Positions 5,740 through 53,837 of a DNA stretch of 64,000 nucleotides are shown piece by piece. A model generated the notes under the pieces. That model worked only from the letters and a program-made list of their open reading frames with translations, ran no database searches and was not told the origin of the DNA. Source of the DNA: Raillietiella orientalis (Eukaryota); assembly GCA_036172245.1 (NCBI GenBank), contig JAYWIR010000011.1:1364001-1428000 (forward strand), read 5' to 3'. Position 1 is the first letter of the stretch; each line of letters opens with the position of its first letter. Both the position numbers and the translations under genes were made by a program.

Positions 5740-6927
5740 GATTTCGCCGCGGTGATTATTATTAATAAGCTTTTGCAAAGACGTTCTGTGGCTGGACCAG
5801 TGCTCCAGCCACGCGTGAAGGAACACAGAGCCAGCCGGGTCACCAATTCGTAGAACCGAACGGAATACCACGGGAGCTTGGAGAAGAAGGATAAACAAAA
5901 AAAACTAAACAAAAAAAAAGGAATAGTTGGGATGGTGCGTGTAGGTATCACTGTTGCTGCTGGGGCCGTTGCTTCCTTCGCATGATTTCGGCAAGCTCTT
6001 TTGCTATGCTTAAATCCAGGTGGGGCCATCGCGATGCACTTCTCAAAAATTCGGCGGCGTGCTGGCTGGCACCCTTGTCGCGAGGTCGTCCCGCAGCCTT
6101 AATCCAAGCGGCGACGATCCCGAGAAGTCAGCACAAGGTTGATAACGAGGCCGCAGGCCGAAGGGCATCGGCAACGAAGAGGGATTTTAAGGCGTCCCTG
6201 GGGTAGCCGCAGTGGATTGCCATGGACGCGGCAAAGCGTAGCCAAAGGGGCATGAGGGGAATACAATGCACAAGTAGGTGGGGGAAGGACTCCCGTTCCC
6301 CACACCTAACACAATTGGGGTCCACCGCTCCCCAGGTCCAGTGGTGTCGGCGGGCGTTGCAGGGGAGTCCCCAGTGCTGCAACAGTAGAGCCGACTCCTG
6401 CCATTTTAAGGGGAGTGTGGAGGTGTTGAGATGCACCGGTGGTCACTTGAGATGTTCAATCGGAACAACGAGCAGCGCGCCCCAGCGCAGAAGTCCATGG
6501 GAAGGCGTACTCGGGGTCGAAGCGTCGTTAGCTGTACCGTCTTCCACTCTCCTAGCTTCTTCTGCTTCCCGGAAATGCATACTGTAACCTCCCACTTCGC
6601 CGCATCATCGCTGTCCAGATCTTCCATTAGGAAGGCCAGCGCAGCAGCAAAGGGTGTTCTTCCTGTCCACACACTCTTCTTCGGATCCTCCAGGATGTCT
6701 CGGAGCGTACAACTTCTGTTGCACCCAAACAGGAACCGTCGTTCCTGTAGGGAGCCTTGCATGCAACTCTGTGGCCACGTGCGAATGGTTTGCTGCAACC
6801 AGGCACTACCGTTCGCTAGACGACCGGTGATCCATCCATGGTTTTTCCGTATCAGTGCAGCCACCCTCCGTAGCTGAAGTCCACATCGGTTCATGCGGCT
6901 GCGATGGAGTGCAAGAAAGGACGGGAG
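5740..6927 (-). mobile_element. Tx1/L1-like 3' fragment (ORF2 C-terminus, T-rich 3' UTR, degenerate terminus)
   Basis: LPLKWQESALLLQHWGLPCNARRHHWTWGAVDPNCVRCGERESFPHLLVHC (C-terminal CX2CX7HX4C finger), then a WPHL motif and T-rich UTR. Confidence 0.85.
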
Positions 6928-8182
6928 TCACGCGTTGCCGTTACGAAGGCAGCAGTGGCTAACGGAGCCCCACCGGACGAGGCAGAGCTCCGGGCTTACG
7001 TAGCGCAGGGCTACAAGCCCGCGCTCTCCTACAAGGTAAGCGCCTTGTACTCCGACTAGCTCTGGAACGAGATGGAGCGCGTCGGAGTCCGCGAGGACGA
7101 CCTCCTGGCGTTAATGCCGGTGAGCGCGCTAGGGCATTGGGAGGTGCACTGCAAGGATGCAGCCCTCGTCCGGCGCCTGTTCCGAGCGCCCCTGAAAATC
7201 AGGGGTAAGGAGGTCGTCCCCTCGGCCCTGGACCATTCGTTCGTGGTCAAACTCTCGGCCATTCGGCCGGGAATCGCCGACCGCGACCTGATCGTTGCAA
7301 TGAAGGCGTTCGCCACCGTGCACGCATTGTGGAGGCGCGTGAACCCCTTCAAGAAGGTTCCGCGCTTCTCTTGCGGACTCGCCACGGCGCGCGTCACTAT
7401 GACAACCGGTGGCTGCTGCCTTCGCAGATGCATCTTGGTGACGCTGTAGTTTTTCTTCGGTTTGCCGGACAAACCCCGGCTTGCGGCAACTGCGGCAAGG
7501 AAGGCCACCGTCCGCGGAAGTGCCCTACACGCAGTTGCCGCTACTGTAAGATGCTTGGCCACTCGATCAACCAGTGCGCCGAGCTGAAACGTAAAGACGG
7601 GCGAGGAACGTACCCGCAACATCGCCGTCCGTGCCGATTCCATCCGCCCCATCGTAGGGCAAGAAATCCGGCGCGAACGAGGCTTCGCAGCGGAGTAGCC
7701 AAAAATTCGTTTGCGCGGGTGTGTCTGGGAGCAAAGCTTCCCAAAAGTCCGCGAAAGAGGGCAAAAGGCAACTCCAAGCTGCCCAGAGCAAGCCCCGAGC
7801 GACGCAGTCTGCCGAGAACATCGGGCAAACTGCAAAACCTCCGCTTCCGTCCGCTCTCGCTCCGGAGCGAAATAGCGGTGGCACTCCCGGGAGGTCCACC
7901 GGAGCGCCCAAAAAGGGGTCCCGCGCCCCTCCGGCCTCGAAAGGCAAGCCGGCCACGGCGAGCCGATTCGCGGCAAAGGCTGCAAAGCCTCGCGCGACAC
8001 CGAACAATCCCTCCACTCTGCCCGCACCTTCCGGTGAGGAGGTGTCAAAGGCAGATGTGGCGAATTAAAAACTGGCCGCCATCGCCGAAGGGGAGGCCTT
8101 GGAACGGATGCAGAGGACCCTAGAAGCCCTCGCGCCCAGCCGTGGCAAACCGGAGAGCAGCGAGGCTGGCTGGACTTTCGTT
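6928..8182 (+). mobile_element. Tx1/L1-like ORF1 (gag-like, CCHC knuckles), disrupted
   Basis: YVAQGYKPALSYKV..FATVHALWRRVNPF..FAGQTPACGNCGKEGHRPRKCPTRSCRYCKMLGHSINQC: two CX2CX4HX4C knuckles; contains a stop and a frameshift. Confidence 0.88.
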
Positions 8183-10664
8183 GATGCCACCCGGATACGC
8201 CGGGACGTTTATTAAAACTTTTCAATCGTCAATACATTACGTGGTACAAGGCCCCACTAATGGCCAACATTCCCCAGGACCTGCCGGGACGCCGGGACGC
8301 AGACCAGCGTGACTCTCCTCGGCAGTGGAAGAGGAAGGGGGCAAAAACAAAAAGAAAAATAAAACAATAACCGAAAAAAAAAGAGATCTTGGAGGGAAGG
8401 GAAGGGATCACTGTCCGCTGCGTGGAGTTACTATCCTTTGCAGGATGCCGACAGGTCCTTCTGCAGATTTCCCAGGTGGGGCCATCGGGTTGCTATTTGC
8501 AGAAAGCGACTCCATGACATCCCTTCCGTTAACATCTTCTGCTTCGTCGGATCCACTCCAAGCCGCCACAATACCGCGGATGCAGCTGAGCGTTACTACG
8601 ACACCGGCTGGCTACAGGGCGTCCCGCACGAAGAAAAGCCGAAAAACGTCTCTGGGAGGGTTACCTTCCACACTCTATCATGTTCCGCAGCGTGCAGCGG
8701 GTGTAGATGCCGGGACGCAGGCGGTTGCAGGGTTCTCCACTAGGCTGGTTTAACTTCGCCCACGTGGCAACCGTTTCTTCCAGCCATGCGCTGGAGTTAG
8801 CGGGGCTGCAGGCCATCCACCCGTTCTCCTTTGCCAGGGTGGCCATGCGTCCCAGGAGAAGGCCGCATCTTCTTATTTTCCGGCCGGGGCACAGAAGAAA
8901 AGACGCGAGTCCTTCAGTCCCGGACACACGTCTGGCGAGGAGGCGGGCCGGAACGCACCAAGGGGTGCTCCACAACTTCGCTGCTGTGGCCAAGGTTCGG
9001 CATCGCAGCTGAATTTCCATGCGCTCCAGAGTCAGAAGACCTAGACCACCATCTCGACGCGGAGCGCACAAGTCCATCAAAGGGACTCGGGGCCTGCCCT
9101 TGCCCCAAAGGGCGATGCGCAGGAGGTCCTTTGTACTCTTTTTTATTTCCATGGGGATGGGGCAAACAAAAAGTAGGGGGCGAAGGATGGGGGCCGCAAA
9201 CGCGTTCCATACCGCGGCCCGTTCTGGCAAGTGGAACTTGCCCTCCAGGAACGGGTCGATCTCCAGCTCCACTTTCTGGAGACGGCCTGACCAGGTTTCT
9301 GACGGGCAGAAGTCCCCAACGGAACGCCAAGGTACTGCAGATATCCGCCCGTCGGGATCCTCAGGCGGATCCAATCAGGCCGTCCTACACACGTCGCTCC
9401 AACTGCAACCACCGACGATTTTGCCCTGTTAACCCGGAGCCCCGTCCCACGTCTTAGCAGGTCGAAGAAATATTCGACTGCCGTTGCCGGGGCGGACATT
9501 GGGAGCAGGAGCAGCAGATCGTCGGCATAGGCGGACACGGCAGGCGTGCCGGGGCACGAGCTTGGCAAGAGCCAAAGTCTTCCTGTAAGCTCTCAGCACC
9601 AACTCGAAGTAGGTGCTAAAGAGCAGGGGACTGAGGCTATCGCCCTGCCGTATCCCGCGGCGCACTCGCACGCCGTACACGTTTTGTCCTCTGAAAAATA
9701 TGTTCGTCAGCGCGGCGCGCCAGCAGGAGCGCAGGTACGCCGTTAAGGTAGGTGGGAAGCCCATGCGATGCAGAAGCTCCAGGATAAGCTCCTGGTCCAC
9801 GCAGTCGAACGCCTTGTGGAGATCGACTGCGATCGCTAGGGCACCCTTGCCCGCCCGGCTGTCCCCACCCTGAACAGCGGTCACCTCAAATTGGGGTTGC
9901 CGACAGATCCCTTCCGCTCTTTAACTTCGCTTTGCACATGAAACCATGTGCTGGCGAAGAACAGGTTAGCCTCCATACTTCGCCCGCGAACAGCGTAAGT
10001 CTGCTCCGGGCTAATTACGGATTCGGCTACCTGTCCGAGCCCCGCAGCCCACAGTTTCGCGACCAACTTGACGTCCGTGTTCACGACCGTGATCGGATGC
10101 CGGTTGTTCAACTTACGGAGGTCTCCTCCCTTAGGAAGGAGCCTCATCCTAGCTGACCGGAACGAGGCGGGAACATCGCCTTCTTCCCGGATCAGCTGTG
10201 TCAACCTAAGCACCAAGGGGGTCATCTCTGCCGCGAAGCTTTGAAAAAACTCCGCCGGCAGGCCGTCCTCCCCTGGCGCCTTAAGCCTCTTGAGCCTTTT
10301 AATCGCGATGATGATTTCACCGGTCGTAAAAGGCTCGTTTAGGCTTTCCCTCTCCTCCTCCGAAGAACTCGCGGACCGAACTCTTGAAGAAGTCCCAATC
10401 CTCGAGATTCCGGAGGGTGACGCCTCTCAGGAATTGGCGGAGATGATCCGCCGCACCTGGGAGCCTCGTCCAATCCCCCGGAAAACGCCACGCCCTGGAT
10501 GGGGGTCCCTTATGGCGTGGCCAAACATCCAATATCAGAGGAAATGGTCGGACAGCGTCGACGGGAGTCTTCCTCGTTTACCGACTCGTGTACACAGGTC
10601 GTAGTCGAGGAAAACGTGGTCGATGCTGTCCTCCATTTCCGGGTCCCCCTCCATCAAGTTGCGT

Positions 10665-10721
10665 CCAAGTCAGATATTGCACCAAGTCAGATAAATTCCC
10701 CGGCTCACCCGGGTGATGAAC
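10665..10721 (+). mobile_element. Minimal insert made essentially of the element's 3' terminal hairpin
   Basis: GATAAAttCCCCGG-CTCAC-CCGGGTGATGAAC preceded by a 12 bp duplication (CCAAGTCAGATA at 10665 and 10682). It interrupts the minus-strand EN between GGRL and RNL. Confidence 0.7.
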
Positions 10722-10989
10722 AACCGACCCCCTAAGATCCTCTCGATCTCATCGACGTCTCTTGCAGTGATCACGTGGATCTCCTGCAGGAGCGCCAGGT
10801 CGAATTCTCGCAGGATGTCGGCTGTATCTCGCCTGTTGCCGTCGTCGCGCAGCCCGTTGACATTCCAACAGGTCACGCGGATCCGTCGGCGACAGGCGAG
10901 CCCAGGGGTTATTCCTGGGAATGTGGCAGTGCGGCTCCCGCCACCTGATCGGGCGGGACGGATGGAGGAGGGGGTGCATCGCGCAACGG

Positions 10990-11210
10990 TTCTCCCTCCT
11001 CCATGGAGGTCGATTCCGCTGCAGCCCTCATCGGTGGGAGTAGGCGGGTATCACCTACCTGCTCTTCCTCCTCCATGGGGTCCGATTCGTCGGCTGGGCC
11101 GGTCGGTGGAAGGGGGAGGTTGTCACCTACCTGCTCCTCCTCCTCCATGGGGGTTGACAGCTGCTCGGTCACGGGGAGTGGGAAATTCCCTTCCTCCGTT
11201 CCCACGCTGC
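10990..11210 (-). repeat. ~72 bp imperfect tandem repeat (about 3 units) in ORF1 C-terminus
   Basis: PMEEEEQVGDNLPLPPTGPADESD / PMEEEEQVGDTRLLPPMRAAAEST / SMEEGEPLRDAPPPPS. Confidence 0.85.
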
Positions 11211-11384
11211 CGGCTTCCCCCCAGGCTGCCGGTGCGTCCCCCTCCTTCTTGGTCGGGATGCGCCTCCTTGGATTCTTGGACTTCCGTCCTGTCTTCTTTG
11301 GAGGCGCCTCCGCGGAGGAGGACGCACTACCGGCATCCGGATCAGCATCACCTTCTTCAGGTGCCTTGACCGCGGCCGGCCTTC

Positions 11385-12083
11385 TCAAGGCCTTTCGCGC
11401 CGGGTTCTCACGGCTTCTGTGGCTGCATTGGGGTCTACCCTGCAACGCGCGCCGCTTCCACTGGACGCGGGGAAGAGTAAATCCTGCGTGTGCCAGGTGT
11501 GGGGAGCGGGAGTCGCTCCCCCACCTCTTAGTTGAATGCCCTGCCGTCCAGATTCTTTGGGATCGGCTTAAAACGGCCCTCCGGATACCGGATGGTGGCA
11601 ATGTTGGATGTGTCTTCAGTCTTGTCTTCGTGCGGGACGCCCTCAGTCCAGCCGCAGCCCTGGCAGCACTTTGCTGCATTCGTGGTATCGTGGCGGCCTG
11701 GAGTGATGCCGAAGATGAAGACTGCATCGTGAGGGACGTCATCGAGTATGCTTCTCGCTTCCTGCAGAGAGCTACCCGATGGCCCCATCTAGGAAAACTG
11801 AAAATGGAACTAGAAGGCATCCTGCAAAGGATGGGCGCTCCCAGCAGTTTTCTGTGATCCCTTCCCGGCCCTCCAAACTTTTTTTTGTGGTTTGTTTTTC
11901 TCTTTTATTTTATTTTTGTTTTCTCCCCCATCCCCCTCCACTGCCGAGGAGAGCCACACCGGGCTGCGTCCCGGTGTCCCGGCAGTTCCGGTATTGCGTG
12001 GCCGTCAGTGGGGCCTTGTACCACGTTCTGTATTGACTGTTGAAATGTTTTTAATAAACGTCCCGGCGTATCCGGGTGGCATC
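11385..12083 (+). mobile_element. 5'-truncated Tx1/L1-like 3' fragment inserted antisense into ORF1 of the 8183-12850 copy
   Basis: LHWGLPCNARRFHWTRGRVNPACARCGERESLPHLLVEC...RWPHLG, stop at 11857, T-rich UTR, terminus at 12053-12083. Confidence 0.92.
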
Positions 12084-12854
12084 GGCCGACGAGTTCGGCC
12101 GCAAGCTCTTCCGCCTCCTGTTCGAAGGCGGCGTCCTCGATCACGGAGAGCGCGTCGCACGGCTCCTCCTCTGTTTGCAGAGAGGGTTCGCCTCCGGGGA
12201 TCGCGGCTTCGACGCAAACGAGGCGGGGGATATCTCCCCCGGTGGCGGCCTCTGAGGCCCCCACGCGCTCCAAAGTGACCGAGCATTCGCGGAGCAATGC
12301 GCGGCGCTGTTTCCTATTCAAAGGATTCGCAGCTGGCTCCGCTTTCGGGCCTTTGGTTTTCTTTGGTTTCTTTGGCTTCACCGTCTGCCAGCCCTCGTTC
12401 TCACCAGCGTCGTCGGGAGTATGCTGAGAGGGTTCGGGCTCTGGCTTCTGGATACGCCTTGCTGTAGCCTCTTTGGGCTTCGACGATTTTTCCGCGCGTT
12501 TCCCTTGAACTTTTTTCAAAGCGGGGGGAGTCGGAGTTTCGCGCTTTGGGCACACTTTCCGGAGGTGGCCCTTCTCTCTGCAGTGGAAGCACTGGATGTG
12601 AGGGCACTGTTTTTTCAGGTGCCCTGTGGCATCGCAGTGTCCACAGTACTTGGGTTTCCCCACGTACCAGACATCGACTGTCTCGCTGGCGACGTCCAGC
12701 TTGTGCGGTAACCCACCGTTTTCATGCACGGTTACATGCGCTGCGGCCATGCCACTAAAAGCCTTCCATAGGTTTGGAAGACGTTGAGCTTGGTCCAGAG
12801 CGCGTGTACCGTGCCGTACTTGCTGAGTTCCTCCTGCACGTCCGGTACCTTGCG

Positions 12855-13195
12855 GAGTACAAGGCCAGGGCCGAGTGCCAGGTTTGGCAGTCTGGAGCGG
12901 CTTGTCTGCTCGATGACGCTGGCCAGGAATGCTCGGCTGCAGCCGACGTAGTCAGGCGCTACTACTCCTCGACGGAACAGTCTCTCCGAGCTGCTTCTGC
13001 CGGCGGGTAACCCTGCTATCGACGAGGAGGAACGCGAAACTTTGGGCTTGCCCTTCACGGCGGAAGAAGTGTCTTCCTCCATAGAGGGCCTGAAGAGGTG
13101 TAAGGCGCCTGAGGAGGATGGCCTGCCCGTGGAGTTCTTTCATTGCTTCGCGGCAGAGCTCGTCCCTCTGGTGCTGAGCCTCTCCGCGCTGATGC
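12855..13195 (+). mobile_element. Tx1/L1-like linker and RT-start fragment
   Basis: WQSGAACLLDDAGQE..RRYYSS and LPFTAEEVSSSIEGLKRCKAPEEDGLPVEFFHCFAAELVPL, homologous to 53840-54170. Confidence 0.88.
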
Positions 13196-14740
13196 GTTTT
13201 GAACCCGGTCACGCCGGGACGTTTATTCGTGAAAACAAACCACAAACTTGAAGGGAAATTTATCCCCTCAAGACACAAGAAACGCCCATACAAAAAGTTT
13301 AGCCTGGAAATACCACCGGCACGCAGGCCAACTTCAAAAAGAAGGGAACGGGAGGAGAGGGGTACAAAATAAACAAAACAAAACAAAACAAACAAACAAA
13401 CAAACAGGGGAGGGTGGGGTCAGGGATCTTTGGTATCACACGTTGCTCATCTTTCTAGAAGCGCTGTTTGACGATGGCGACTTCCCTGGCGACTTTTCTG
13501 GACAGATGAAGCCACTTTGCAGCTGCCTCCATACGGTTGGCGGCTCTCCTGGTGGCGTCTTTCCGCTGTGAACTCCCTTCGAGCTTACGGCGGGCCGTCA
13601 CGATGGCGCGAATGCAACAGATTGTTGCAATCACAGCGCCTTTTTTCAGTCCGTCTTCGCTGAAGAAACGTCGCAGCAGGTCGATGGCAGTGTCCTGGGG
13701 ACGACGAAGTGCCGAAGCGAGTCTCCGCCATAACTCCTGCAAAACATTGCAGTCCAGAAGTGGGTGCGGAAGCGCGATTCCATCGCCCTGCACCTGAGGC
13801 AGTTCGGGGAGGCAACTCCCCCGGAAACCAAGTGTCTGCGCTTATTGCACTGAAAACCGTAGTGCAGGAATAGCAGAACATCCTGTTTCCATCGAAGCGG
13901 GAACACGGAGGTGTCCACACACAAAGAAGGGACCACGAGTTCTTCGGGGAGTAATCCAAGAACCTCACTCCCTTTGCCCGGTAACGAGGAGTGGCAGCCT
14001 CTACCAACACGCTCGTTTTGCAGCCGCTCAGCAGTCTTTCCACTCCTGCAATGCTGCAGAAGAACTCCCACCTTGCCGGTTGGCTACTGTCGTTGTTTGC
14101 CCTGAGAGCAGACAGCGCTGCGGCGATGGGTGAGACGGCTACCCGGGACCAAAGCGACCAGTCCTGTAGGATCACTCCTAGCTGTTTGCGTAAGAGGCCC
14201 TTTAGAGGTCGCAGTTGCTCTGGACGCACATCCAAAGTGGGAGTCCAGTGCTCCAGAGCTTCCTGCTGCCAAGCATTCCAGTTGGAGGGGCGGCAGGAAA
14301 TCCAGGAATGGGCTAACAACAACGAGGAGAGATGCCTCAGAGGGTCGGCAAATTCAGTTCTTCGGCGAAGGTTACGCGGCAGCAACGAAAGCAGTCCTGC
14401 ACTGCCGACACATCGCTGGAGGATATGGCGAGCCGGAGCACACCAGTGACTAGACCACAATTTCCCACATAGTCCAGCGGTAGCATGAGGCAGTAGAGTT
14501 GCTTGACTGGGGTCTTCCGGCCACGGAAGCGCTGACTCCTCTCGGGAGTGCGCCAGCTGCAAACAGGCGGATGCCTTCAGACACATGCCTCTGGACTGTG
14601 GTGAGCTTTAGCACATGCGCAGACACTTCGCAGTCAACGTATTCCGTCATGAGAAAAACTTCGTTAACTCCCCCTCACGGGGACTCACCTGGGTTACTGC
14701 TCTGCCGGCTCCATCTGGTAAGGATAGGATCTGATAGCAG
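13196..14740 (-). mobile_element. Tx1/L1-like 3' half, subfamily B
   Basis: KLWSSHWCAPARHIL..WISCRPSNW..VSGGVASPNCLRC..PHPLLDC..KWLHL; 3' terminus at 13196-13227. Confidence 0.85.
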
Positions 14741-16037: not shown

Positions 16038-17847
16038 GTTTTCACCCGGGTGAGGCGGGGCTTTTATTTTTTAAAAGAAACATTTTAACAATTTGTAATT
16101 GCAGTCGACCTTTTGAATTGTATTTGTGTTCCTATCGGAACACATTTTTCGTATTGTTTTGCGCTTGTTTACCGACTTGAGTGCCGGTAAGGCCTACTCC
16201 ACTCGCGAAGGGGAAGGGAAAAAGGAAAAAAAAAATACAAAAAAAAACGAAAAAAAAAAAAGAACGCTTGGGAAACATTGTTTATGGGGAGGGGGAGGGA
16301 AGGGAAGGGATCACTGTTCGCCCAGGGGAGGCCTCTGCATCTGGTTCCGGATGCTAACAAGTGCTGGCAGAATTTTTCTCAGTCGGCGCCAACGGGAAGC
16401 CTTCTCCATGGAGATGACCGCCCAGTGGATGGCATTCCGACTACTGCGGCCTCTTATCGACGCGTTCCACTTGTCCAATATTCCCCGTGTGCAGCAGAGA
16501 ACTGCAACACACGCGGCACCTGGCAGGGAGTTCCGCATCAGGAGGAGACGAAAAATGTTTTTAGGGTCGCCCACCGCTACGTTTATGGCCGACGAGAGTC
16601 GATCCCACGTGCGGCGGAGGGCAACACATTCGATTAGTAAGTGGCGGAAGGTCTCCCTTTCCCCGCACTCTGTACAATGGGCATTCAATCTCCCCAATGT
16701 CCAGTGAGACAGAACGTGCTCTGCTTAAAAGTCCCCAAGGGAGCACAAGCAGCGCCGCCTCCTGCCAATCCAAAGGGAGGGTGCCACTGTCCCAATACGC
16801 CGGGGTCCACTTCACCTCCTCCGGAGGCATGCCGAGCAGCTCGCCCCAGCGCACAATTCCATTTGGCGGGACACTCGGGGTTGTAGCGTCCGCTAGTTCC
16901 CGGGACGTCCACGCCTTCATTAGTTTTTTCCTGTCCCCGATGAGGCAGGACACTTCATACGAAGTCTCCTCTTGGCTGTCCCTGGCTTCCATAAGGGAGG
17001 GCAGCACGGGGGCAAGGGGGATGAATGAGGCCCACAAAAGCTTTTGTGGGTGGGATACGATCTCCCGCAGGGGCTGGCCAGCGTTCCTGCCTCGACGAAG
17101 GCAGGAGAAGTCCACCTCGCTGGAGCCGTTGATTTTTGCCCACGTGGAAACGGAATCCTGGAGCCAGGTAGTCCAGTTTGCGTGGCTGCAGGAGATCCAC
17201 GGGCTGCTCCTCACCAGGGCCACCAATTCACGTAGCTGTGAACCACAATGGTACAGTCTATTGTCGTTGGCTACGAGGACTGAAATCAGTCTATCGCAGC
17301 CGGTTGTCCTGTGGGCGAGGAATCGTATGGGCGCACACCATGGTGCTGTCCAATATTTTGCCGCAAAGGCAAGTTTTCTTAGTTGGAGCTGACGCTCCAT
17401 GCGCTCCAACGTCAGGATACCAAGTCCACCGTCCCTGCGTGGAGCGCACATGTCTTTAAGTCGGACGCGGGGCCTCCGGTTACCCCAAAGGGCTTTCCTG
17501 ATGAGGCCCCTTGTTCGTGTCCTAATTTGGGGAGGGACGGGGCACACAAAAAGTAGAGGGCGAAGGAGGGGGGCCGCAAAGGCGTTCCACACCGCTGCCC
17601 GTTCCCGCAAGTAAAACTTGCCGTCCCGGAACGGGCGATCGCTAACTCCACCTTTTGAAGACGGTCGGACCAGGCTTCTGCAGCGCACAAGTCCCCCAAC
17701 GGAACGCCAAGGTACTTGATCTACCCGCCCGTGGGGATCCCCAAGCGGATCCATGCCGACCGTCCTGCCCGCGACGAGTCAGAGAAGGTGATCGACGACT
17801 TCGTCCTGTTCACCTCGAGACCTGTCCCGCGGCGCAGCAACTCGAAG
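16038..17847 (-). mobile_element. Tx1/L1-like 3' third, subfamily C
   Basis: LLRRGTGLEVNRTKS..KYLGV..RERAAVWNAFAAP..LPLDWQEAALLVLPWGL..CTECGERETFRHLLIEC; terminus at 16038-16068. Confidence 0.9.
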
Positions 17848-31160: not shown

Positions 31161-31179
31161 CTCAGTCCTCTGCCCTGTA

Positions 31180-31500: not shown

Positions 31501-31599
31501 TCGTGTAAAGAAAACAGAATAGCCGTTTCACCCGTTTCTGGGAGGCAAGTCCGAGATGCCGGAATGTGTCAAGGAGTGGAAAACGTCCAGGGTTTTCTC

Positions 31600-41149: not shown

Positions 41150-42594
41150 AGATTTCAACCTCCACTTCAGGATGCTGGCTTGGGCATCCTGATATTGGAA
41201 AGAATCGGACTGCAAGTGCAGTTCCGAATGCTGGCGCCGCGTGCCAAGCTGTGGACTCCCCCGTTGTGCGCTCCTGCACGCATTCTTCTACGGAGATGCG
41301 CCTGCAGCGAAGGATTGCTCTCGTTGGTGCCGGGCACTCAGTACAGGATGCGGGGTTTCGGAATCCCATTGAGGCAATTGACCTCACTTCTGGAAACCCA
41401 AACGTGGATCTCCTGCCTCCCAATGAACTTCAACGCTTGACGGCAGGAAGCTGTTGAGTCCTGGGTTGCGTTCCAGGAAATGCGCCCTGAAGATCTTTGC
41501 CCCCTGCGACATCTCCTACCTCTACCACTGGGAGAGTAATGCAGGACGCAGTAAAGCTTTCAGCACTGTTCGCCACGCCTCTTGCTGCAGCACTGTCTGC
41601 ACTCAAGGCAAGCGATGACAGGAGTCTAGCAACGAGGTGGGAGTTTTCCTGCCCCGTCGTGGGAAAAACCAGACTCCTTGGCGGCTGGAAGACGCGCGAG
41701 CTGGCGGATGCTGCCACTCCGCTTGCCGTGGCGACGGGATTCCTTCAGTGGGGCTAACTTTTGAGTGTTATCTCCGAAGAACTTGTCGTCCCTCCCTATG
41801 GTTCTCACAGTTCCTTGATCTCCCTCGCCTGGAAACAAGCCATACTGCTCTTCATCCACAGAGAATTCCAGTATAATGAGCGACCGCATCAAGTTTCCGG
41901 AGGAGTTGCATCTCCGAACTGTGGCAGGTACGAGTCGCCGGAGTCGATCCCGCACATGCTTTTGGACTGCAGTACCCTCCAAGAACTGTGGCGGAGCCTG
42001 GCAACGGCACTTATGCACCAGAAGGATACCGTAAGAGACGTGCTGCGGTGGTTCTTTGCTCCCAGAGGTCTCTCCACGGGCCACGTTATTGCAACCATGG
42101 GTTGCATCCTCGCCATCGCTTCGGCCCGACAGGTGCTGGAAATCACCGGGCATCAAAGGAAGTTCATCAGGATGGCAGCCAATTACATCGGGGCGGCTGC
42201 CAAGTGGTCTCACCTGGGAGAAAAAGCAATGCGACATCCACTGCCGGTTGATGGCCGGTTTGGGACGGCGAACCCGGTAATCCTTGTCCTCTTCCTCCTT
42301 TTATTTATTTATTTTTTTTTTAGTCCCCCGTTCCCTTACGCTCTGTGACTTTCTTGGTGAATTTCGTTTATATCCCGGTGATTGCGGAGCGTTACCAAAG
42401 ATCTTTACCCCTCCCCTCCATCTTGTTTTTGTTTTTTTGCTGTTGTCCCCATGTTCCTCCCCCATTCCGGACTATCCGTTATCCCGCCTTGCATGCCGGT
42501 GGATTCTCCCCTATGTTTCTTTGTTGTATTGGTTGTGGTCTTTGTTCCTCACCTCTTTATTTAATAAACGACCCGGCGTGACCGGGTGATAAAT
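41150..42594 (+). mobile_element. Tx1/L1-like 3' half, subfamily B
   Basis: GLGILILERI..KLWTPPLCAPARILL..LAWKQAILLFIH..VSGGVASPNCGRYESPESIPHMLLDC..KWSHLG; terminus at 42563-42594. Confidence 0.9.
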
Positions 42595-43594
42595 TTCAAC
42601 CTCCGCCATGGGTCGGTGAACGAGGGAGAGTGAGGATCGACCACTTCCGACCATTGCCGGCTGGAGTCCGAGGTCCGAGATTTGACATACGACTCCTCGT
42701 CGGAAAGCGTTCCGCTAGAAAACATCAACTCAACCATCCATTAAATGCGCCCATAGAAGACGCATTCCGTCAGATGGGCACAAAGCCTCCTGACCAGGAG
42801 GTGGGAACCACAGCGCCACCATCACTACAGTGATGCGTGGGCTCGTCTCTTGCCGGCGACTGCGCATTGTCTGTTGGAACGTCAACGTGCTGCGGGACTA
42901 CGACAAGAGGAGGGACATAGCCGCCACTCTACGAGCCTATCGAACAGGTGCTTCTGCAAGAGTCACACAAGCTGAACGCAGAAGAAGTCGAGGAAATCGA
43001 AAGGATCGAAGGTGGTCAGCTGCTGTGGCGCGTACAGGTTCGGCCCACTCCCGCGGAGTGGTCCTGCTGAAACCAGCCGTCGACAACTCCCTGCGCGACA
43101 TGCATTTCGGGGTGGAAGGTCGAGTGGAACGGCTTGCGGTGAAGTGGTCCGACTCGATTCACCTCGTGGTCACGAAAGCGTACGCGCGCAGCGCCACCAA
43201 CAGGCGCGGAAAACGCACGGCGTTCTATGAAGGACTGAGGAGCGATTGCCTGGTCGAAGCAGGCGTGCGGAGGGCGCACTTGATAGCCGGGGACTCCAAC
43301 GCCCGCCCGCTGTCAGGTGCGCCGAACGGACCAGCAGATCTGGTCGACAAGATGTGCACACGCGCAACTTGTGGACCGGAGTAGCCGTGGTGGAGGAAAG
43401 CATTAACCACGTGTTCCTGGACAACCACTTGTAGTCACAAGTGGGAAATCGAAGAGCCATGAGGTCAACGCTGTCGGACCACTCTCGGCTTGTGCTCGAG
43501 ATACATCCACGCGACAGAGGCCCGCCCTCCCAAGCATGGCGCCTGCCAGAGGGCTGGTTGAACCTCGCAGGAGCAGCGGGGACATCTCGGCGAA
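42595..43594 (+). mobile_element. Tx1/L1-like ORF1 end and endonuclease
   Basis: TGATG stop/start at 42831; CWNVNVLRD, SRGVVLL, AHLIAGDSN, INHVFLD, TLSDHSRL. Confidence 0.88.
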
Positions 43595-43830
43595 CACTGG
43601 ATCTTCTGCTAAGAAGAAAGATCTTGTGTTGACACCAGTTGTAGCACACTCGGAACAACAGTCCAACTGATTGATTCTCAATGAATTGAAACTGTAGTAA
43701 TTGAGGCTATTTAAAACATTTCACATTCGTTGAGTGACACAGGATCACTAGACTAATTTCAGTAAATTAGATTTAATCGTATGTCAGATTCAATCTTTAT
43801 CCCAATACACCTCAAACAACTATCACTAGC

Positions 43831-47030: not shown

Positions 47031-47163
47031 GCTCTTCACTGCCGTTTGACAACGGGCGCGGTTCGAAACCAAAACAAAAAGAAGCTTAAATGAAGGCCTT
47101 ACAGTTTGTAACTTGAAACAAAATGTTTTTATTAATTTTTTCTGCAAGTTTTGAGCAAGAGCG

Positions 47164-47960: not shown

Positions 47961-48459
47961 TCAGCCAGTTGTATGAACACACGACAACACTTTTTGTGGG
48001 GGGAGGGGGAGGGTGCCGTGGGAAGGGGATGGCTTCTCACGGGCACAGCCACCACCACCCACCTACCAAGAATGTTGAAAGCTTCTGTTGAAGAGTAGAA
48101 ATCCTTCCGTCCGGATGGTGGGTGCTCATTCTCTCACCTTCGCGCAGGGGGATGCGGGGCGTGGCCGCAAAACCGACCGGCAATCCGCGTACAGCATGGA
48201 ATGTTGTGGCTCCCGGAGCATGCGGAGAGCGTTTCCTGGACCGTCAGGGTGCCCGAGGCTCTCTCACCAAAGTGGGCCCGTACCGGTGGCACCAGCTTCA
48301 TCGCCATCCAACCGATAATCAGTTCTTCATTCCCTGCCTACATCATCTTGCCATACGTTTTTCCGTAATAGATGATGAATGGGTTTCAGCATCACTCATA
48401 AATTCGGATTTGTCAACAAAACGTGGTGCGCCTCTTCGCTCTGCTGCGGAGGTGAGCCC

Positions 48460-49720
48460 CGCCGCTCCTCGAACCGGCATCGTGGCGGCTTCCTTGCTCG
48501 TGGACCCTCGTACGACCAAGTGTCCTTCCAAATCGGACCAGTGGCCACCTATGTACGTTCTTGGAGAAGAATCGTCCCGGCTTTACCTGGCGGGAACGCC
48601 GGCAGCAGAGCTCGGAAGGAGCGATCAGCTTGCGAGCGCGGACGGGAGGGCGCGTTCCGGGGTCGGTCGTGCTTCACCTGGCCGGCTGGATCTGCTCTCC
48701 GAGACAACGGGCGGTGGCGAGCGTGAGCAACTGCCTGTGATGAAGGCCGTCGTGCCCGCCGCTCCATCAGGCCATGGCTCGGGAGGCAAGGTTCTGTGGC
48801 TGTGGGGAGCGCTCCTGTTCCCGATGCAACCTTCCGCATTCAGGAAGCGCGCGAGACGGTGAATTCTTCACTCCGTGGATGCTCTCTCAGCAGAGGCAAG
48901 GCCCCCAGGCGTTTACTGCAGAGTGGAACGAACGCAGTTCCAGGGAGCAGCCGCAAGACTACTCCAACCCACCCACTGCTAATTCATTCGATCGTTCCCT
49001 TTGTTCCTTCTCCCTGCATCCTCTCTCTACCTGATCGCGCCACCAGTGAGCGCTGGCCACTCCGACCTTGGGCTGGTTCTGCGACCTCTCTGAACCGCAT
49101 TTTACTTGTTTCGTATCGAGTCGCAGCCCTCAGCATCGCGTCGAAGCCCGCAGAACTTCGGTCCGATGCTTCGAGACGAACGAGGCCAAAAACAAACAAA
49201 CAGATCAATGCGGAAAGAACTGCAGGAAAGGAACGATTCGGGAGGAATAGTGGGAAGCACCAATAGCGTTTCCGAATGAGGAGGTACTCCAGAATGCTCC
49301 GGGGACCTTCAGATGGAGCAGCTGGGATGCGTGGGCGAATCATACGACTGTGCACTCCTCCGTACCGGGACTCCTCGCTTCGAAGCCCTACAAGGAGCGC
49401 TTATTGTGCACTCTGGAAAAGGAGACAAAAGAACGCCAAAGGACACGGGAGGTTCTGGTGCATCTGCGTTTACGAGTTCCAAGGTTGTTTTTGCCCTTGC
49501 GTGCAAGAGCGTCGCACTTGGGAGGAGGGCTGGCTGCTACTCAACGATGGGGCCAGTGCTCAACCGGAAGCCAGGCCACTTTTTCTCCTGGCCTGCGAAC
49601 GCGTCCGCTCTTCAAGGTGCACCTCGCATACTCCCTTGAGGCGAAATTTCCCACGAGGAGTCGTCCAGGGTGGCAAGAAAAAGGTCTGCCACGTTTTGGG
49701 CAGTATCGAGCACAGCATTT
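48460..49720 (+). mobile_element. Decayed Tx1/L1-like ORF1 fragments
   Basis: GFLARGPSYDQVSFQIG resembles YLASGYNPCLRYKVG; QGGKKKVCHVLGSIEHSI is a degenerate knuckle. Confidence 0.5.
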
Positions 49721-49721
49721 A

Positions 49722-50220
49722 TTCCCTCAGAACTCTCCAGGACGTTTATTTTATAAAAATGAAACACCAGCTACAGAGGAAGAAGGACATCCCCTCAAAA
49801 GACAAGAAAGGCCCCAAAGCAAGAAGTCCGGCCAGGGTAACCACCGACACGCAGGTCGGCTTCCAAAAAGTAGGGAACGGAGGGGATGGATAATAAAGAA
49901 AGAAAGAAAGAAAGATCGGAGGGTGGAGACAGGGGTCTTTGGTATTAGACGTTCCTGAATTTCTAGAAGCGGCTGTTGATGGTGGCGGTCTCCCTGGCGA
50001 ATTCTTCTGGAAGACAGGCCGCCTTGCTGCTGCCATGCTGGTGATCTCTGTTCGCCCCGAACTTGACTCCAGCACGTGGCAGACTGTCACTATGGCGCGG
50101 ATGCAACATCTCGTTGCGATCACAGCGCCGTGTGGGTCGGGCGTGCATTGGCGCGTCCAGCGAGTTTGGTGAGTGGTGTGGAATGTGGCTATTGGGCGTC
50201 GACCCGACGCCTGGAATGCC
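49722..50220 (-). mobile_element. Tx1/L1-like 3' fragment, subfamily B, degenerate terminus
   Basis: GAVIATRCCIRAIVTVCHVLESSS; ends AATAAACGTCCTGG-AGAGT-TCTGAGG. Confidence 0.8.
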
Positions 50221-52111
50221 AAGTGGCCCTGACAGTGAAGTCCAGGGAGCAGGGACGGAAGCCCTAGAGCACAGGGCGCCGGAGGGGACACCCGTCTCTT
50301 CCGCAGAAGAATCGGCGTCCCCCAAGGGGACGCTGTGGAGCGCTGTGGCTGCGGCACCTTCGCCAGCGGTCGCGGCAGTGGCTACGGCTTACCTCGCCTC
50401 GGGCTACAACCCGTGCCTGAGGTACAAGGTAGGTCAATTGTGGAATCCAGCAGTAGTGCGCTCCTTCTCGGAGGAGCTTTATAAGCTGCAAGTCAAACAG
50501 GAGGAGCTCGTCGCCCTCTCCATTCTGAGCGGTGGGCAGACAGTCGAGGTGGCTTGCAAGGAGGCGAGCCTTGCCTAAAGACTGATGCACACACCGATTA
50601 CAATCGGAGGGCGCAGGATCTTCCCTGTGACGGAGGACTGCTCAAGATCGTGCACCTTACCGGAATTACAGTGAGGATGATCAAAGAAGCAGTCGTCCGC
50701 TCACTGCAACAGAACGGGACGGTCCACGCACTGTGGTCAGAGCCCAGCGTCTTCCCCGACTTTCCAGGGGATCAGATCTAGCCGGAGCGCGAGTGGCTGT
50801 ATGGTAAGAAGAGCTTCCTCACAGACTGGAGGTCAGCCGTGAACCCGTCGACCTCTGGTACACGGGGAAACCAAAGGTCTGTACACACTGTGGCAAGTCG
50901 TGTCACCTGAAGGGAAGGTGCCTCGATATTATATGCTATAGATGCGGGAAGAGCAAACTCGGAAATTCTTCTGCTCCCTCAGACCCGGCAGACCTTCCAA
51001 GAGCGCGCCGGAACGGAAGAAAAATAAAAAGCAAAATAAAAATAAAAATAAAAAAAGGAATAAAGAAAAGAGATCGCGCGCGATTTCGTCAGAAGGAGGA
51101 AAACAGGCGAGGAATGCCAGCAAGGAGGTTCCTCCCCCCGATGCAACCAAGGTAAGTCCCCGACGCCGAGGCAGCACAGGAGGAAGAAGGCTGAACGGTG
51201 GTGACCCGCCGAAAAGAAAAAAAAAAAAAAACATACAAACAAAAGAAACATCCTGCGACTTTCGCGGCTTAAAGCTCCGAAGACCGCGAAAGACGCTATC
51301 GATTGCGCTGTTAGGCACGTTGCGGAGGTCGTTGTCGTCGAGATCAATGACCTCGGAAATAGCGCGATTGACAAGGTGGCCACTACTTGTAGCCTGGACG
51401 CAGCTGTACCGAACGGCGCAACAGCGAATGCTGCTATGGCGAAGCCTCTAACCGTCGGAGGCGCGACAACGCGCGAGGCCACAGAGGCCGGTCGGAGGGG
51501 AATCTGGAGACCCACACGGGGACCTACCCAGGGGTCGTCGGAATCCGAAACCAATACCTGACCTCTTGCCCCGAGCCGGAGGCTTGCCACTCGACATTGC
51601 GGAGGGCCAAAGCGGCTAGAACGCTCCAGGCCCAAGTCGAGCAGGAGGAAGCCTCCGCACTAGGAAGGATGCAGGAAGGTTCGCGGGAATCCTCCGTGGA
51701 GGCCATCCTGCGAACCCCTACACAAAATGAAAGGAGGGAGGAAGGGGATGTGGTTTGGGCTCCCCCTCCCCTCCCGGACACCGCGCCGGTCGAGAGCCGG
51801 GTGGGTGCTACGTCGCCAGATTCCCTGCAGTAATGCATGAAATGACGTCCTCCCGTCGCTTGCGCGTGGCCGTTTGGAACGTGAACGGCCTGCGCGACGT
51901 CGTGAAAAGACGCGACAAAGCCCACTCCCTACGAAACTCCGACTTTGCGCTCCTCGAAAAGATCCACGTGATCGCGGACGAGGATGCCGCTGACTTCGAA
52001 CGGATCGCGGGAGGAAAGCTGCATTGGTAGTGCGGAACCCGTAAATCGAAAGGGGTGGCCTTCCTCTTGAAGCCAGCCATCATGCGCGCGGTGCACAGCA
52101 TACGGTTCGAC

Positions 52112-52666
52112 GTTTTCACCCGGTCAAGCCGAGGCGTTTATTGTAAACTTCGATATTTGCAGTGCAAGGCTCCGCTGCGGCCAATTAAACAAGGGACCCG
52201 TCGGTGCGCAGACCGACTTGACACTCCACGGCAGCGGAGGGGGGTGAGGAAAAAACAAAAAGAAAAATAAAAGATAACTGAAAAAAAAACTATAGTTCTT
52301 TGGAGGGTCGGGAAGGGATCACTGTCCGCTTTGTGGAGGTTCCATCCTTTGCAGGATGCCGACGAGGTCCTTCTGCAGATTTCCCAGGTGGGGCCATCGG
52401 GTTGCTATTCGCAGAAAGCGAGCTGCATACTCCATGACATTCCTTTCGTTTACATCTGCTTCGTCGGATCCACTCCAAGCCGCCACAATACCGCGGATGC
52501 AGCTGAGCACTGCTACGAAAGCCGCTGGCTGCAGGGCGTCCCTCACGAGGAAAAGCCGAAAAACGTCTCTGGGAGGGCTACCTTCCACGATCCCTAGGGT
52601 CGTACCGAAACGTTCCCACAGAATCCGGAGGGCAGGGCAGTCAACTATAAGGTGGGGGAGGGACTT
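52112..52666 (-). mobile_element. 5'-truncated 3' fragment inserted antisense in the endonuclease
   Basis: SLPHLIVDC..CIRGIVAAW..RWPHLG; terminus at 52112-52142; very similar to 8400-8670. Confidence 0.92.
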
Positions 52667-53189
52667 CAGGGTTTCGAGGAACCGGGAACGTTCCCGGTTC
52701 CTCGAAACCCTGGAGCACGACTGGCTGGCTGATACAAACGTACGCAAGGCACATCTGATCGGTGAGGATTTCAACATCCGCCTGCTCTCAGGTGTGCCTT
52801 GAGAGCAAAAAGACGCGGCCAACGAGTTGCGCGCTGCTATGCGCATGCGCAACTTGTTGGGGGACCTACCGGAAATGGTCCAAAGAGTCGACCACGTCTT
52901 CCTTGACGCCGACCTGTGCCCACGGGTCGGCAGACGAGGGAAACTTCCGTCGACGCTATCGGACCATTTCCGGCTCATTTTCGAGGTTATGCCTCGCGAC
53001 AAAGGACCACCATCCAGGGTGTGGCGTCTGCCCGGGGACTGGACGCGGATCTCAGGTGCGGCGAAACATCTCCACCAATTCCTGGGAGGCTTCATCCTCC
53101 GGAATCTCGACGACTGGGACCTCATGAAGGTCTCGGACCGCGAGTTCTGCGAGGAGTTCCATGTGCACCGCCTGCCCCGGGGATTTGGT

Positions 53190-53837
53190 GTTGCCACCCG
53201 GGTACGCCCGGGGCGTTTATTGAAACTCTACAAAAACGTGGTGCCAGGCCCCACTAACGGCCGCACAACACCGGACCTGCCGGGACGCCAGGACGCAGCC
53301 CGGCGTGACGCTCCTCGGCAGTGGAGGGGAGTTTGGGAGAAAACAAAAAAAATAAATAAATAAATAAAATATAGAAAAACAAAAGGAGTTTGGAGGGAGG
53401 GGAAGGGATCACTATCCACTAGGAGGAGGGCCCATCCTTCGCAGGATGCCCTCTAGGTCCTTCTGCGTTTGTCCCAGATGTGGCCATCTCGCAGCTCTTT
53501 GCATGAAGCTCACAGCATACGGGATGACTTCCCTCTCGTTGGCATCCACTCCTTCGTCGCAAATGTCGCTCCAGGCCGCCACGATGCCCCGGATGCAGCA
53601 GAGGGCTGCGAGGGCTGCGGTGGGCTGCAGGGCGTCCCGCACGAAGAGGGGCCGAAGAACGTCTCTGGGCGCGCTGCCCATTGGGAGCCCGAGGGTCGTC
53701 CCGAACCGTTCCCACAGGGGTCGGATGGCAGCACAGTCAACTAGAAGGTGGGGGAGCGATTTCCGCTCCCACACCTGGCACACTCAGGGCTTACACTTCC
53801 TCGCGTCCGCTACTGCGGGCGTGCCGGGGCACGAGCT
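53190..53837 (-). mobile_element. 5'-truncated, internally deleted 3' fragment inserted antisense after the endonuclease
   Basis: SLPHLLVDC..RWPHLG; terminus at 53190-53221. 53818-53837 matches 9543-9562 exactly (RT region just before YADD). Confidence 0.92.

Follow-up and report, generated by a model that had tools for sequence, protein, structure and literature searches.

When a LINE inserts into older copies of its own family, does the target influence the orientation of the new copy, and from which strand is the new copy primed? The question is raised by a stretch of DNA of 64,000 nucleotides from Raillietiella orientalis (GenBank assembly GCA_036172245.1, contig JAYWIR010000011.1, positions 1,364,001 to 1,428,000 of the forward strand), hereafter the window, in whose own numbering positions are given. 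A preliminary description had counted nine 3' termini lying against recognisable sequence of the same family, eight of them antisense to it. The antisense pattern is real in the window, although the cases are too few to prove a rule.

The window is a graveyard of decayed copies of one diverged LINE family of the L1 superfamily, which makes up about 23 kb (36%) of it. The strand and family position of the fragments (Table 1) were assigned with an HMM of 13 distant L1 proteins, single-sequence and iterated nhmmer searches, and matches to the CCHC module of ORF1. ORF2 carries a probable endonuclease, a reverse transcriptase (RT) and a C-terminal zinc finger. Pfam RVT_1 is matched at 53745-54839 on the plus strand (E 1.6e-14; 54.6 bits against a cutoff of 29.6) and at 9432-9920 on the minus strand (E 5e-11). 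The endonuclease matches positions 197-295 of the external L1 HMM (E 8e-4) and Pfam Exo_endo_phos at E 4.4e-4 (20.5 bits, under the cutoff of 24.5); a GDFN-like endonuclease motif is seen in X1 and P. Upstream of ORF2, ORF1 encodes two CX2CX4HX4C (CCHC) knuckles in the translations of M, B and P, and its match to Pfam zf-CCHC (E 7.9e-4) is just under the cutoff. The RT, the CCHC module of ORF1 and the marks of target-primed insertion (duplications, and 5' truncation at points that vary from copy to copy) place the family in the L1 superfamily. RT relatives at E <= 0.001 numbered 22 among 8000 scored candidates; they are long RT proteins, about half with an endonuclease domain. The closest named relative is a fish RT protein with 31% identity, the best matches being otherwise unnamed or generic RT proteins.

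Members of the Tx1 clade often target other repeats, and insertion at one specific sequence is common among them. The family had been labelled Tx1-like in the preliminary description, and it does have the L1-like domain order of that clade. However, the three targets defined by duplications (ATTAAACAAATG, ACTCACYAGTCCGC and ATTTCAACCTCCRC) differ and share no specific sequence, and no named Tx1 element was found among the protein search matches.

At the 3' end of the family's copies, AATAAA is followed by a 5-bp GC hairpin and then a short tail that mostly finishes in AAC, without poly(A). A 26-nt end motif (AATAAA, hairpin, TG) has eight matches with at most three mismatches, compared with none in 100 shuffles. 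The GC stem is conserved in all ten aligned ends, and perfect-hairpin ends are present. Thirteen 3' termini were recognised in the window. Pairwise identity between copies is 70-85%.

Table 1. Fragments of the LINE family and associated features in the window
Feature	Position	Strand	Evidence and remarks
Endonuclease-region fragment F1	3803..4058	+	nhmmer against sister copy 42595-43800 E 1.7e-30; iterated E 1.8e-71
RT-start fragment F2, host piece adjoining terminus 5740	5142..5733	+	L1 HMM 427-485 E 7e-7; nhmmer E 2.9e-36
Copy C, 3' part, terminus 5740, antisense to F2	5740..6943	-	nhmmer reference 2008-2472 E 2.1e-19; zf-RVT at 6215-6406, minus strand
ORF1 piece of host B	6943..8182	+	phmmer matches to ORF1 of M and P; two CCHC knuckles 7410-7586
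Element M: ORF1, endonuclease, RT, own 3' end	8183..12860	-	RT HMM E 9e-38; endonuclease-RT linker absent
57-bp 3'-end fragment within M, antisense	10665..10721	+	end motif with 2 mismatches; sister-copy alignment
699-bp 3' fragment within M, antisense	11385..12083	+	nhmmer E 8e-75; zf-RVT 11435-11587, plus strand; final 31 nt identical to M's own end
Linker and RT-start piece of host B (B'), cut by terminus 13196	12870..13195	+	external HMM 426-483 E 2e-9; resembles P linker at 53829-53939
Copy D, 3' part, terminus 13196, antisense to B'	13196..14607	-	nhmmer E 7e-15; iterated E 2e-70; perfect hairpin
Solitary 5'-truncated copy E, in AT-rich non-family DNA	16038..17847	-	nhmmer E 3.6e-89; 12-bp duplication ATTAAACAAATG
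3' fragment, head-to-head with 31011..32853	30230..30994	-	terminus not recognisable
RT-to-3'-end copy	31011..32853	+	nhmmer E 1.9e-71
Solitary 3' fragment	38263..38908	+	zf-RVT HMM E 1.5e-6; 14-bp duplication ACTCAC[C/T]AGTCCGC
Endonuclease fragment X1 (GDFN motif); resumes 42607 to about 42680	40900..41165	+	nhmmer against P, Q and F1, all plus strand, E 2e-9 to 8e-6
Copy X2, sense nest in X1	41166..42592	+	14-bp duplication ATTTCAACCTCC[A/G]C
Endonuclease-region copy Q; uninterrupted sister for gauging host loss	42780..43600	+	iterated nhmmer
Decayed 3' end	48431..48597	+	iterated nhmmer E 6.5e-13
3' fragment, head-to-head with P	49722..50133	-	nhmmer
Element P: ORF1 through RT, own 3' end missing	50230..55607	+	RT HMM E 2e-63; colinear with M
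Antisense 3' fragment in P endonuclease region	52112..52663	-	nhmmer E 1e-88
Palindrome, 26-nt arms, 96% complementary, no spacer	52664..52715	.	5' junction of 52112 insert; right arm is host sequence
Antisense 3' fragment in P endonuclease-RT linker	53190..53808	-	nhmmer E 2.6e-70; P sequence resumes by about 53829

The coordinates of the nine termini in the preliminary description proved accurate within 2 nt. Seven antisense same-family junctions were verified (5740, 8183, 10721, 12083, 13196, 52112 and 53190) together with one sense junction (42594), whose host is X1 and not the element starting near 42780. The eighth antisense case, 49722, drops out, similarity to any family sequence being undetected in its outer flank (48598-49721), which also gave no Pfam matches. 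The earlier p of about 0.02 for eight of nine is arithmetically sound (0.0195); the verified seven of eight give a one-sided binomial p of 0.035, in a test chosen post hoc with the data already seen, and a two-sided p of 0.07. The interval 48598-49721 is faced by a plus-strand terminus (48597) and a minus-strand one (49722). If it were plus-strand family sequence, 48597 would become a second sense case, and eight of ten would give a one-sided p of 0.055.

The structures behind these junctions were also borne out. Two hosts that had been rebuilt as colinear elements split by antisense inserts, P on the plus strand and M on the minus strand, are colinear with each other (83% identity over 1.6 kb). 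P hosts two antisense inserts, which are 75% identical to each other. M holds two plus-strand inserts and is itself an antisense nest, lying between the plus-strand ORF1 and RT-start pieces of host B as had been proposed. F1 and F2 probably belong to one older plus-strand copy. The absolute strand of the termini is mixed (seven minus, six plus), and strand orientation alternates with nesting level. When the 13 junction windows were compared all against all, every alignment began at the element end, the sole exception being that of 53190 with 8183, which extends 8-10 nt into the flank. No junction duplicates another, and the junctions are independent events.

One could suppose that the antisense junctions are mis-joins between repeats made during assembly, and they do lack the built-in control that a target-site duplication would give. 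This is scarcely credible, however. Copies only 70-85% identical are too diverged for repeat collapse, each junction lies exactly at a canonical 3' end, and the host pieces continue colinearly beyond each insert. Moreover, three other insertions in the window keep intact duplications.

The antisense bias among same-family nests is suggestive, and chance remains a serious possibility, if something short of an even one. Nesting may simply be ordinary in an island dense in transposable elements, with orientation 50:50 genome-wide and seven of eight an accident. The sample is small, as the one-sided values for seven of eight and eight of ten show, and the hypothesis was drawn from the same data. 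In addition, same-family flanks at eight of the 13 termini are not clearly above the 36% family coverage of the window (p about 0.06). On the other side, neighbouring pieces from different copies are opposite in ten instances and the same in two (one-sided p = 0.019), a tally that overlaps the junction count and is not independent of it. The antisense class also has a junction anatomy of its own.

This anatomy is seen in the target-site duplications, which were sought as repeats of at least 10 nt with at most one mismatch. None was found at the seven antisense nests, whereas clean duplications of 12-14 bp flank the sense nest and two solitary copies, three of three. The contrast has a Fisher p of 0.008, again post hoc, and age could partly contribute to it, older duplications having decayed past the search criterion. 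The preliminary description had stated that host sequence is missing, rather than duplicated, at each site. Compared with uninterrupted sister copies, about 85 bp of host is lost at 52112 and about 290 bp of M at 10721. More than 1 kb is also missing where M sits in its host; the statement stands for these three sites. At 12083 the flanks are of low complexity and cannot be aligned, and the assessment at 53190 is approximate.

At all seven antisense nests reverse transcription starts exactly at the canonical 3' end, and the junction sequences show that the strand continuing from the host into the new cDNA is the host coding strand (7/7). The three duplication-flanked sites have a purine-rich nick context ending in T (AAAT, GAGT and AAAT, read up to the nick), a regularity that extends to only three sites. 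In long host copies, all eight same-family insertions struck the end of ORF1, the endonuclease or the start of the RT. These regions make up 39-45% of the family DNA in the window, so that eight of eight has a P of 0.0005 to 0.002, calculated post hoc and with our own fragment boundaries. Confinement to the 5' part is in keeping with targets that had not yet lost that part.

Pairing of the terminal AAC with a target GTT had been offered as a source of the strand bias. The junctions do not bear this out. The GTT seen there belongs to the element's own end, eight of the 13 termini finishing in AAC regardless of flank, and no shared motif was found in the last bases of the priming strand at the seven antisense sites. 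Furthermore, in 18.1 kb of family DNA, GTT occurs 211 times on the sense strand and 267 times on the antisense strand; being rarer on the sense strand, it would by simple pairing favour sense insertions, opposite to the predicted direction. Since motif asymmetry between the family strands is at most about 1.3-fold, base composition cannot yield a ratio of 7:1.

In twin priming the inverted segment derives from the same RNA as the non-inverted 3' segment, from just upstream of it. A 5' inversion of this kind was considered and rejected: the inverted pieces are 3'-terminal and start at the canonical end, rather than being upstream segments, and inserts and hosts differ in subfamily (75-85% identity).

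Ordinary sequential nesting, with older copies that were long providing the primer from their coding strand, is the most likely explanation. Newer copies entered long, older members of their own family by reverse transcription, in single events one after another. In the seven antisense cases synthesis began at the very 3' end of the incoming RNA and used a 3'-OH on the older copy's coding (non-template) strand; downstream host DNA was lost, as seen at three of the sites, and no target-site duplication was formed. The sense nest and the two solitary copies followed the ordinary staggered-cut route, with its duplications of 12-14 bp. If the antisense excess is real, its likeliest cause is a strand asymmetry linked to transcription in the older copies, presumed to be still transcribed, such that priming on the coding strand would be tolerated and priming on the template strand aborted. 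For the two together, sequential nesting from the coding strand and transcription-linked asymmetry behind the excess, we would put the probability at roughly 0.45. The fold-back palindrome at one 5' junction, that of the 52112 insert, is counted in its favour; a dedicated self-silencing device forms no part of it.

Endonuclease-independent L1 insertion leaves no duplication, loses target DNA and is primed from ends unlike the usual nick site, and its products are often 3'-truncated. The antisense nests resemble such events in lacking duplications, in the host loss at 52112 and 10721 and in priming ends that look unlike the usual nick site, but differ in that all seven start at the canonical 3' end and are not 3'-truncated. 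L1 insertions with target-site deletions are described by Sen et al. 2007 (PMC1920257). The proposed asymmetry follows what has been suggested for human L1 in expressed genes, where Servant et al. 2017 (PMC5717806) describe L1 nicks on the coding strand leading to antisense inserts, the sense class being removed by transcription-coupled repair. The likeness lies in the step from coding-strand nick to antisense insert and in a bias that arises at insertion. In that account the target is a host gene (PMC5717806); in the present case its place would be taken by an older, presumably transcribed member of the LINE's own family.

More elaborate is an antisense homing specific to the family, which could take two forms. 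The LINE RNA might pair with a resident copy on its template strand, so displacing the coding strand, which would then be cut and prime on the RNA 3' end. Alternatively, the RT might jump during second-strand synthesis to other family RNAs at their 3' ends and then return, writing antisense 3'-end patches and skipping host sequence in one event. Homing would jointly explain the same-family targets, obligatory antisense orientation, exact 3' starts, missing host and fold-back junction, and the conserved hairpin would fit recognition by the RT of the end of its own RNA. It is nevertheless quite unlikely. Neither form is directly evidenced, and a canonical sense nest with a duplication exists within the family. 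The first cluster requires at least two different plus-strand hosts, which does not fit a single-event origin, and the GC skew of the sense strand is weak, with no marked R-loop signature. Same-family flanks also exceed local density only at p about 0.06. As a general proposition, that the family homes to resident long copies and primes only their coding strand, self-nesting being obligatorily antisense and target-deleting, is unlikely; if true, it would build loci in which a single strand carries the family in both sense and antisense.

An excess might also be produced after insertion by a filter, with antisense nests retained through dsRNA or small-RNA silencing, the trap suggested in the preliminary description, or sense nests erased by recombination between direct repeats. 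That one strand of an antisense nest holds the family in both orientations is trivially so, and a recombined sense nest would presumably resemble an internally deleted copy and go uncounted. Several observations make such a filter distinctly improbable, however. The mixed strands of the termini are unlike a unistrand small-RNA cluster. Only one inverted family pair within 6 kb (8183-8638 with 12083-11621, 78% identity) exceeds the self-BLAST threshold of E below 1e-10 and at least 150 bp, and the antisense inserts of P share only about 40 bp of P's own family coordinates. Homologous recombination would work poorly between copies that are 70-85% identical. In the human genome, inverted Alu pairs at close spacing are described as under-represented, not over-represented (PMC3215922), which is likewise counted against the filter. 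Nor does the window favour a piRNA-type source cluster: the fragments are not mostly antisense to one transcription direction, as the seven minus and six plus termini show. Nothing observed here supports a silencing trap.

Self-nesting is also a property of Zepp and ZeppL in Coccomyxa and Chlamydomonas, L1-type LINEs that insert into their own copies (Blanc et al. 2012, PMC3446292; Craig et al. 2021, PMC8226300). Their clusters are described as GC-rich and composed mostly of 5'-truncated 3' ends, Zepp having 61% GC within a genome of 53% GC (PMC3446292; PMC8226300). The present family shares with Zepp an L1-type organisation, and eight of its 13 termini have same-family flanks, against 36% coverage (p about 0.06). 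In contrast to the tandem, same-orientation arrays reported by Craig et al. 2021 (PMC8226300), seven of the eight nests here are antisense; target DNA is lost at nests, the Zepp junctions being compared through the description of Craig et al.; the ends lack poly(A); and external proteins reach at most about 32% identity, with no algal affinity seen.

For human L1-in-L1 nests, Table 3 of Levy, Schwartz and Ast 2010 (PMC2836564) gives 21,559 sense and 9,899 antisense, a 2.18-fold sense bias attributed there to intrinsic sequence features of the elements. Human L1 and Alu nesting, as described in that paper, is a precedent for an orientation bias of LINE-in-LINE insertions and for hotspots in the targeted element. 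The bias there is sense; in the present window antisense nests are in excess, and the two strands differ little in composition. Because human L1-in-L1 nests lean to sense, an antisense bias is not the default for LINEs, a point that counts against the explanation preferred here. If the antisense excess held genome-wide, LINE self-nesting in this family would run opposite both to the same-orientation arrays of Zepp and to the sense-biased human nests. A real excess would link antisense nesting to junctions of a separate kind, which lack a duplication and have lost target DNA, and would offer a natural system for learning which target strand a LINE primes from, and why. It could also address whether, outside mammals, orientation is set by target transcription. 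The window provides a clean, well-annotated example and a testable prediction, and not a demonstrated rule.

A few other copies deserve mention. The decayed 3' end at 48431..48597 was absent from the list in the preliminary description. The copy at 31011..32853 has a hairpin-deleted end (AATAAACGCCCATGGCAAC), and a target-site duplication was sought around it and not found. Near the 3' fragment that lies head-to-head with this copy, a 20-nt perfect palindrome is present at 30161-30201.

Sequential nested retrotransposition within an island accounts for the arrangement of the LINE copies in this window; this is concluded with high confidence, since the 3' starts are exact, the hosts are colinear and the junctions are independent. 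The evidence base is the 64-kb window sequence together with the literature. The family, of the L1 superfamily, makes up ~23.3 kb or 36% of the window, and its copies are 70-85% identical in pairwise comparison, which indicates several subfamilies and makes repeat collapse during assembly unlikely. Strand and family coordinate were assigned to each fragment by single-sequence and iterated nhmmer searches with three reference stretches from the window, and ORF1 pieces by phmmer; raw tblastx self-comparison gave a few leads but was otherwise obscured by noise. An HMM from 13 distant proteins gives the domain order ORF1, endonuclease, variable linker, RT and C-terminal zinc finger. ORF1 has two CCHC knuckles in three copies. 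Pfam RVT_1 is matched at 9432-9920 (minus strand) and 53745-54839 (plus strand), and matches for zf-RVT, endonuclease and zf-CCHC are weak. Relatives of the RT are distant (≤32% identity) and consist of long endonuclease plus RT proteins, including those of fish and plants. A protein-cluster search returned generic RT clusters only, protein-guided locus searches of prokaryote genomes and viral contigs found no relatives, and Rfam and tRNA scans of the window gave no matches. Two copies, 13196-14607 and 41166-42592, have in common a C-terminal region (13747-14257 and 41621-41946) that exceeds the one in M, a minus-strand element at 8183-12860, by ~400-500 bp, and this common feature indicates a separate subfamily. 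The first 4 kb have a GC content of 29-33%, much of the middle has 45-54%, and two GC-rich blocks at ~6-14 kb and 48-58 kb reach 57-60%. The AT-rich block (1-4000) adjoins the first LINE cluster, and the solitary copy at 16038 likewise lies in an A/T-rich target.

The copies end without poly(A). The end consists of AATAAA, 1-2 bases, a 5-bp GC stem (CCCGG, loop, CCGGG), TG and a short tail, with AAC as its last bases in 8 of 13 copies. The 26-nt end motif has 8 matches at ≤3 mismatches versus 0 in 100 shuffles. The stem is kept in all 10 aligned ends with compensatory change in 0 of 5 pairs, so that the hairpin is conserved but proof by covariation is absent. A metagenome scan with the 3'-end motif returned 8 loci, all of them GC-rich stretches in which a run of Ts follows a hairpin; BLAST finds no similarity between any of these and the window, and they are therefore unrelated. 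The terminal 31 nt of M (8183-8213) are identical to those of an antisense insert within it (12053-12083), despite an overall identity of 78% between the two 3' regions. Shared subfamily or local conversion could produce such identical ends.

The 13 recognised 3' termini are collected in the table, where M and P (a plus-strand element at 50230-55607) are the two hosts that can be rebuilt.

Recognised 3' termini of the LINE family, their settings and target-site duplications (TSD)
3' terminus	Copy	Setting	TSD
5740		antisense to plus-strand RT 5142-5733	
8183	M, 8183-12860	antisense to plus-strand ORF1 6943-8182	
10721		antisense, within minus-strand M	
12083		antisense, within minus-strand M	
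13196	13196-14607	antisense to plus-strand linker and RT start 12870-13195	
16038	16038-17847	solitary copy	ATTAAACAAATG
32853			
38908	38263-38908	solitary copy	ACTCAC[C/T]AGTCCGC
42594	41166-42592	sense nest	ATTTCAACCTCC[A/G]C
48597		adjoins 48598-49721	
49722		adjoins 48598-49721	
52112	52112-52663	antisense, within plus-strand P	
53190	53190-53808	antisense, within plus-strand P	

The outer flank can be assigned to the family at 8 of the 13 termini, which is not clearly above the 36% of the window that the family occupies (p ~0.06). In the preliminary description, eight of nine same-family junctions were antisense. Seven antisense cases and the one sense case were verified; the eighth, 49722, was not, as its flank has no similarity to family sequence by nhmmer, HMM or Pfam. 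A decayed plus-strand terminus absent from that earlier list, 48597, faces the same interval from the opposite side. If the interval is plus-strand family sequence, and it could be the 5' leader of P, 49722 would be antisense and 48597 a second sense case. One-sided binomial probabilities are 0.0195 for 8/9, 0.035 for the verified 7/8 and 0.055 for 8/10. Neighbouring pieces from different copies are in opposite orientation in 10 cases and in the same orientation in 2 (p = 0.019), a count that overlaps the 7/8 of the junctions. The antisense excess is small and suggestive, and chance is the main rival explanation for it. The junctions themselves are independent: when the 13 junction windows are aligned all-vs-all, each match starts from the end of the element, and one pair has an additional 8-10 nt of flank in common.

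Both rebuilt hosts proposed earlier hold up, M and P being colinear over their pieces. M 8763-10361 aligns to P 55607-54011 with 83% identity, M 10355-10663 aligns to P 53156-52848, and the upstream pieces are likewise colinear. M in turn does lie antisense between two pieces, ORF1 and RT start, of a different plus-strand copy. A single large inversion that made this plus-minus-plus pattern from one element was rejected, as it would leave the flipped pieces out of colinear order, and twin-priming inversion was rejected on the family coordinates.

Target-site duplications distinguish the insertions. They are present in 3 of 3 copies (two solitary, one sense) versus 0 of 7 antisense nests (Fisher p = 0.008, post hoc), where they were sought at ≥10 nt with 1 mismatch allowed and ≤150 bp from the 5' boundary, by eye at 10721. 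Decay of older duplications could contribute to the contrast. The sense nest has its target in an older endonuclease fragment, within the GDFN motif. Compared with uninterrupted sister copies, ~85 bp of host are lost at 52112 and ~290 bp at 10721. M replaces >1 kb of its host. At these three sites host sequence is missing rather than duplicated, as first described. Host sequence resumes by ~53829 after the insert at 53190, and at the 12083 insert the flanks and ORF1 tail are low-complexity and unalignable. The 5' junction of the 52112 insert carries a palindrome (52664-52715) with 26-nt arms that are 96% complementary. It is the best zero-spacer palindrome in the window, and its right arm is host sequence, which points to a fold-back repair intermediate. 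A second palindrome, 30161-30201, has 20-nt arms with 100% complementarity and occupies the expected end position of the 30230 fragment. Among palindromes with a spacer of zero or one, these two rank highest in the window, and each lies at the edge of a minus-strand 3' fragment.

The use of M to represent the empty site of the insert at 53190 was ruled out, since M lacks the entire endonuclease-RT linker, which is common to P, to the plus-strand RT-start fragment (linker at 5050-5142) and to the plus-strand host piece beyond M (12870-13023). The linker deletion in M (10355-10361 vs P 53156-54011) lies between two GGAGGAG microhomologies and within ~40 bp of the position of the antisense insert in P.

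In all antisense nests the strand with host sense sequence runs into the complement of the 3' end of the new copy, and this continuity places the priming 3'-OH on the coding strand of the host. The pre-nick context at the three sites with target-site duplications is purine-rich and ends in T (AAAT, GAGT, AAAT); the seven antisense priming ends have no common motif. All eight same-family insertions fall in the interval from the ORF1 end to the first third of RT, in long host copies. None is found in the 3' 1.6 kb, a part that contributes 55-61% of the window's family DNA (P 0.0005 to 0.002 in a post hoc test with fragment boundaries of our own).

Pairing of the terminal AAC with a target GTT, suggested earlier as a cause of the bias, is not supported. 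GTT is rarer on the family sense strand than on the antisense strand (211 vs 267 in 18.1 kb), so that such pairing would push the opposite way, and a junctional GTT merely mirrors, as its complement, the AAC with which the element itself ends and is hence uninformative on the target. For all short motifs tested in the same 18.1 kb, strand asymmetry is at most ~1.3-fold; base composition cannot give 7:1, and strand motif frequency was rejected as the cause. GC skew gave a weak and uninformative R-loop signature. Should the excess be real, the most economical explanation would be a strand asymmetry linked to putative transcription of long older copies, in which priming on the coding strand would yield antisense nests. 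For L1, coding-strand nicks, which give antisense inserts, are described as escaping transcription-coupled repair, and template-strand events as being removed (Servant et al. 2017, PMC5717806). The transcription-linked reading fits the priming on the coding strand, targets that keep their 5' parts and the absence of any cause in base composition. Bolder readings, in which copies would home through RNA:DNA pairing or the RT would jump while the second strand is made, would cover more features at once but are unlikely, and the family also has one canonical sense nest. The other earlier suggestion, that antisense nests act as a small-RNA trap through dsRNA or piRNA, is not favoured, as the termini are of mixed strand (7 minus, 6 plus) and a single inverted family pair within 6 kb passes the self-BLAST threshold, at 78% identity.

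Zepp and ZeppL elements also nest in themselves, yet they are described as tandem arrays of 3' ends (Craig et al. 2021, PMC8226300; Blanc et al. 2012, PMC3446292), whereas 7 of 8 verified nests are antisense here. Human L1-in-L1 nests have a 2.18-fold sense bias, 21,559 vs 9,899 (Levy et al. 2010, Table 3, PMC2836564), and inverted pairs of transposable elements are described as tending towards rarity in flies and humans (McGurk and Barbash 2018; PMC3215922). No LINE with antisense-biased self-nesting of the deletion type came up in a limited literature search. The earlier observation is borne out in part and gives a well-defined lead, pending a genome-wide count.

Two other features of the window lie outside the family. 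An open frame at 21466-21807 (plus strand) resembles cytochrome b (Pfam Cytochrom_B_N_2, E 1.2e-7; 47-55% identity to cytochrome b proteins, including those of insects and corals, over about half its length) and probably derives from mitochondrial DNA that was inserted into the nuclear genome and has since decayed. A 698-bp inverted repeat without a Pfam match (47164-47857 vs 59317-60014, 99.4% identity) brackets the whole P cluster and is of much later date than the LINE copies. Either a further transposon family or a recent inverted duplication may account for it, and weaker relatives of it are present at ~56856-57163 and 58269-58436.
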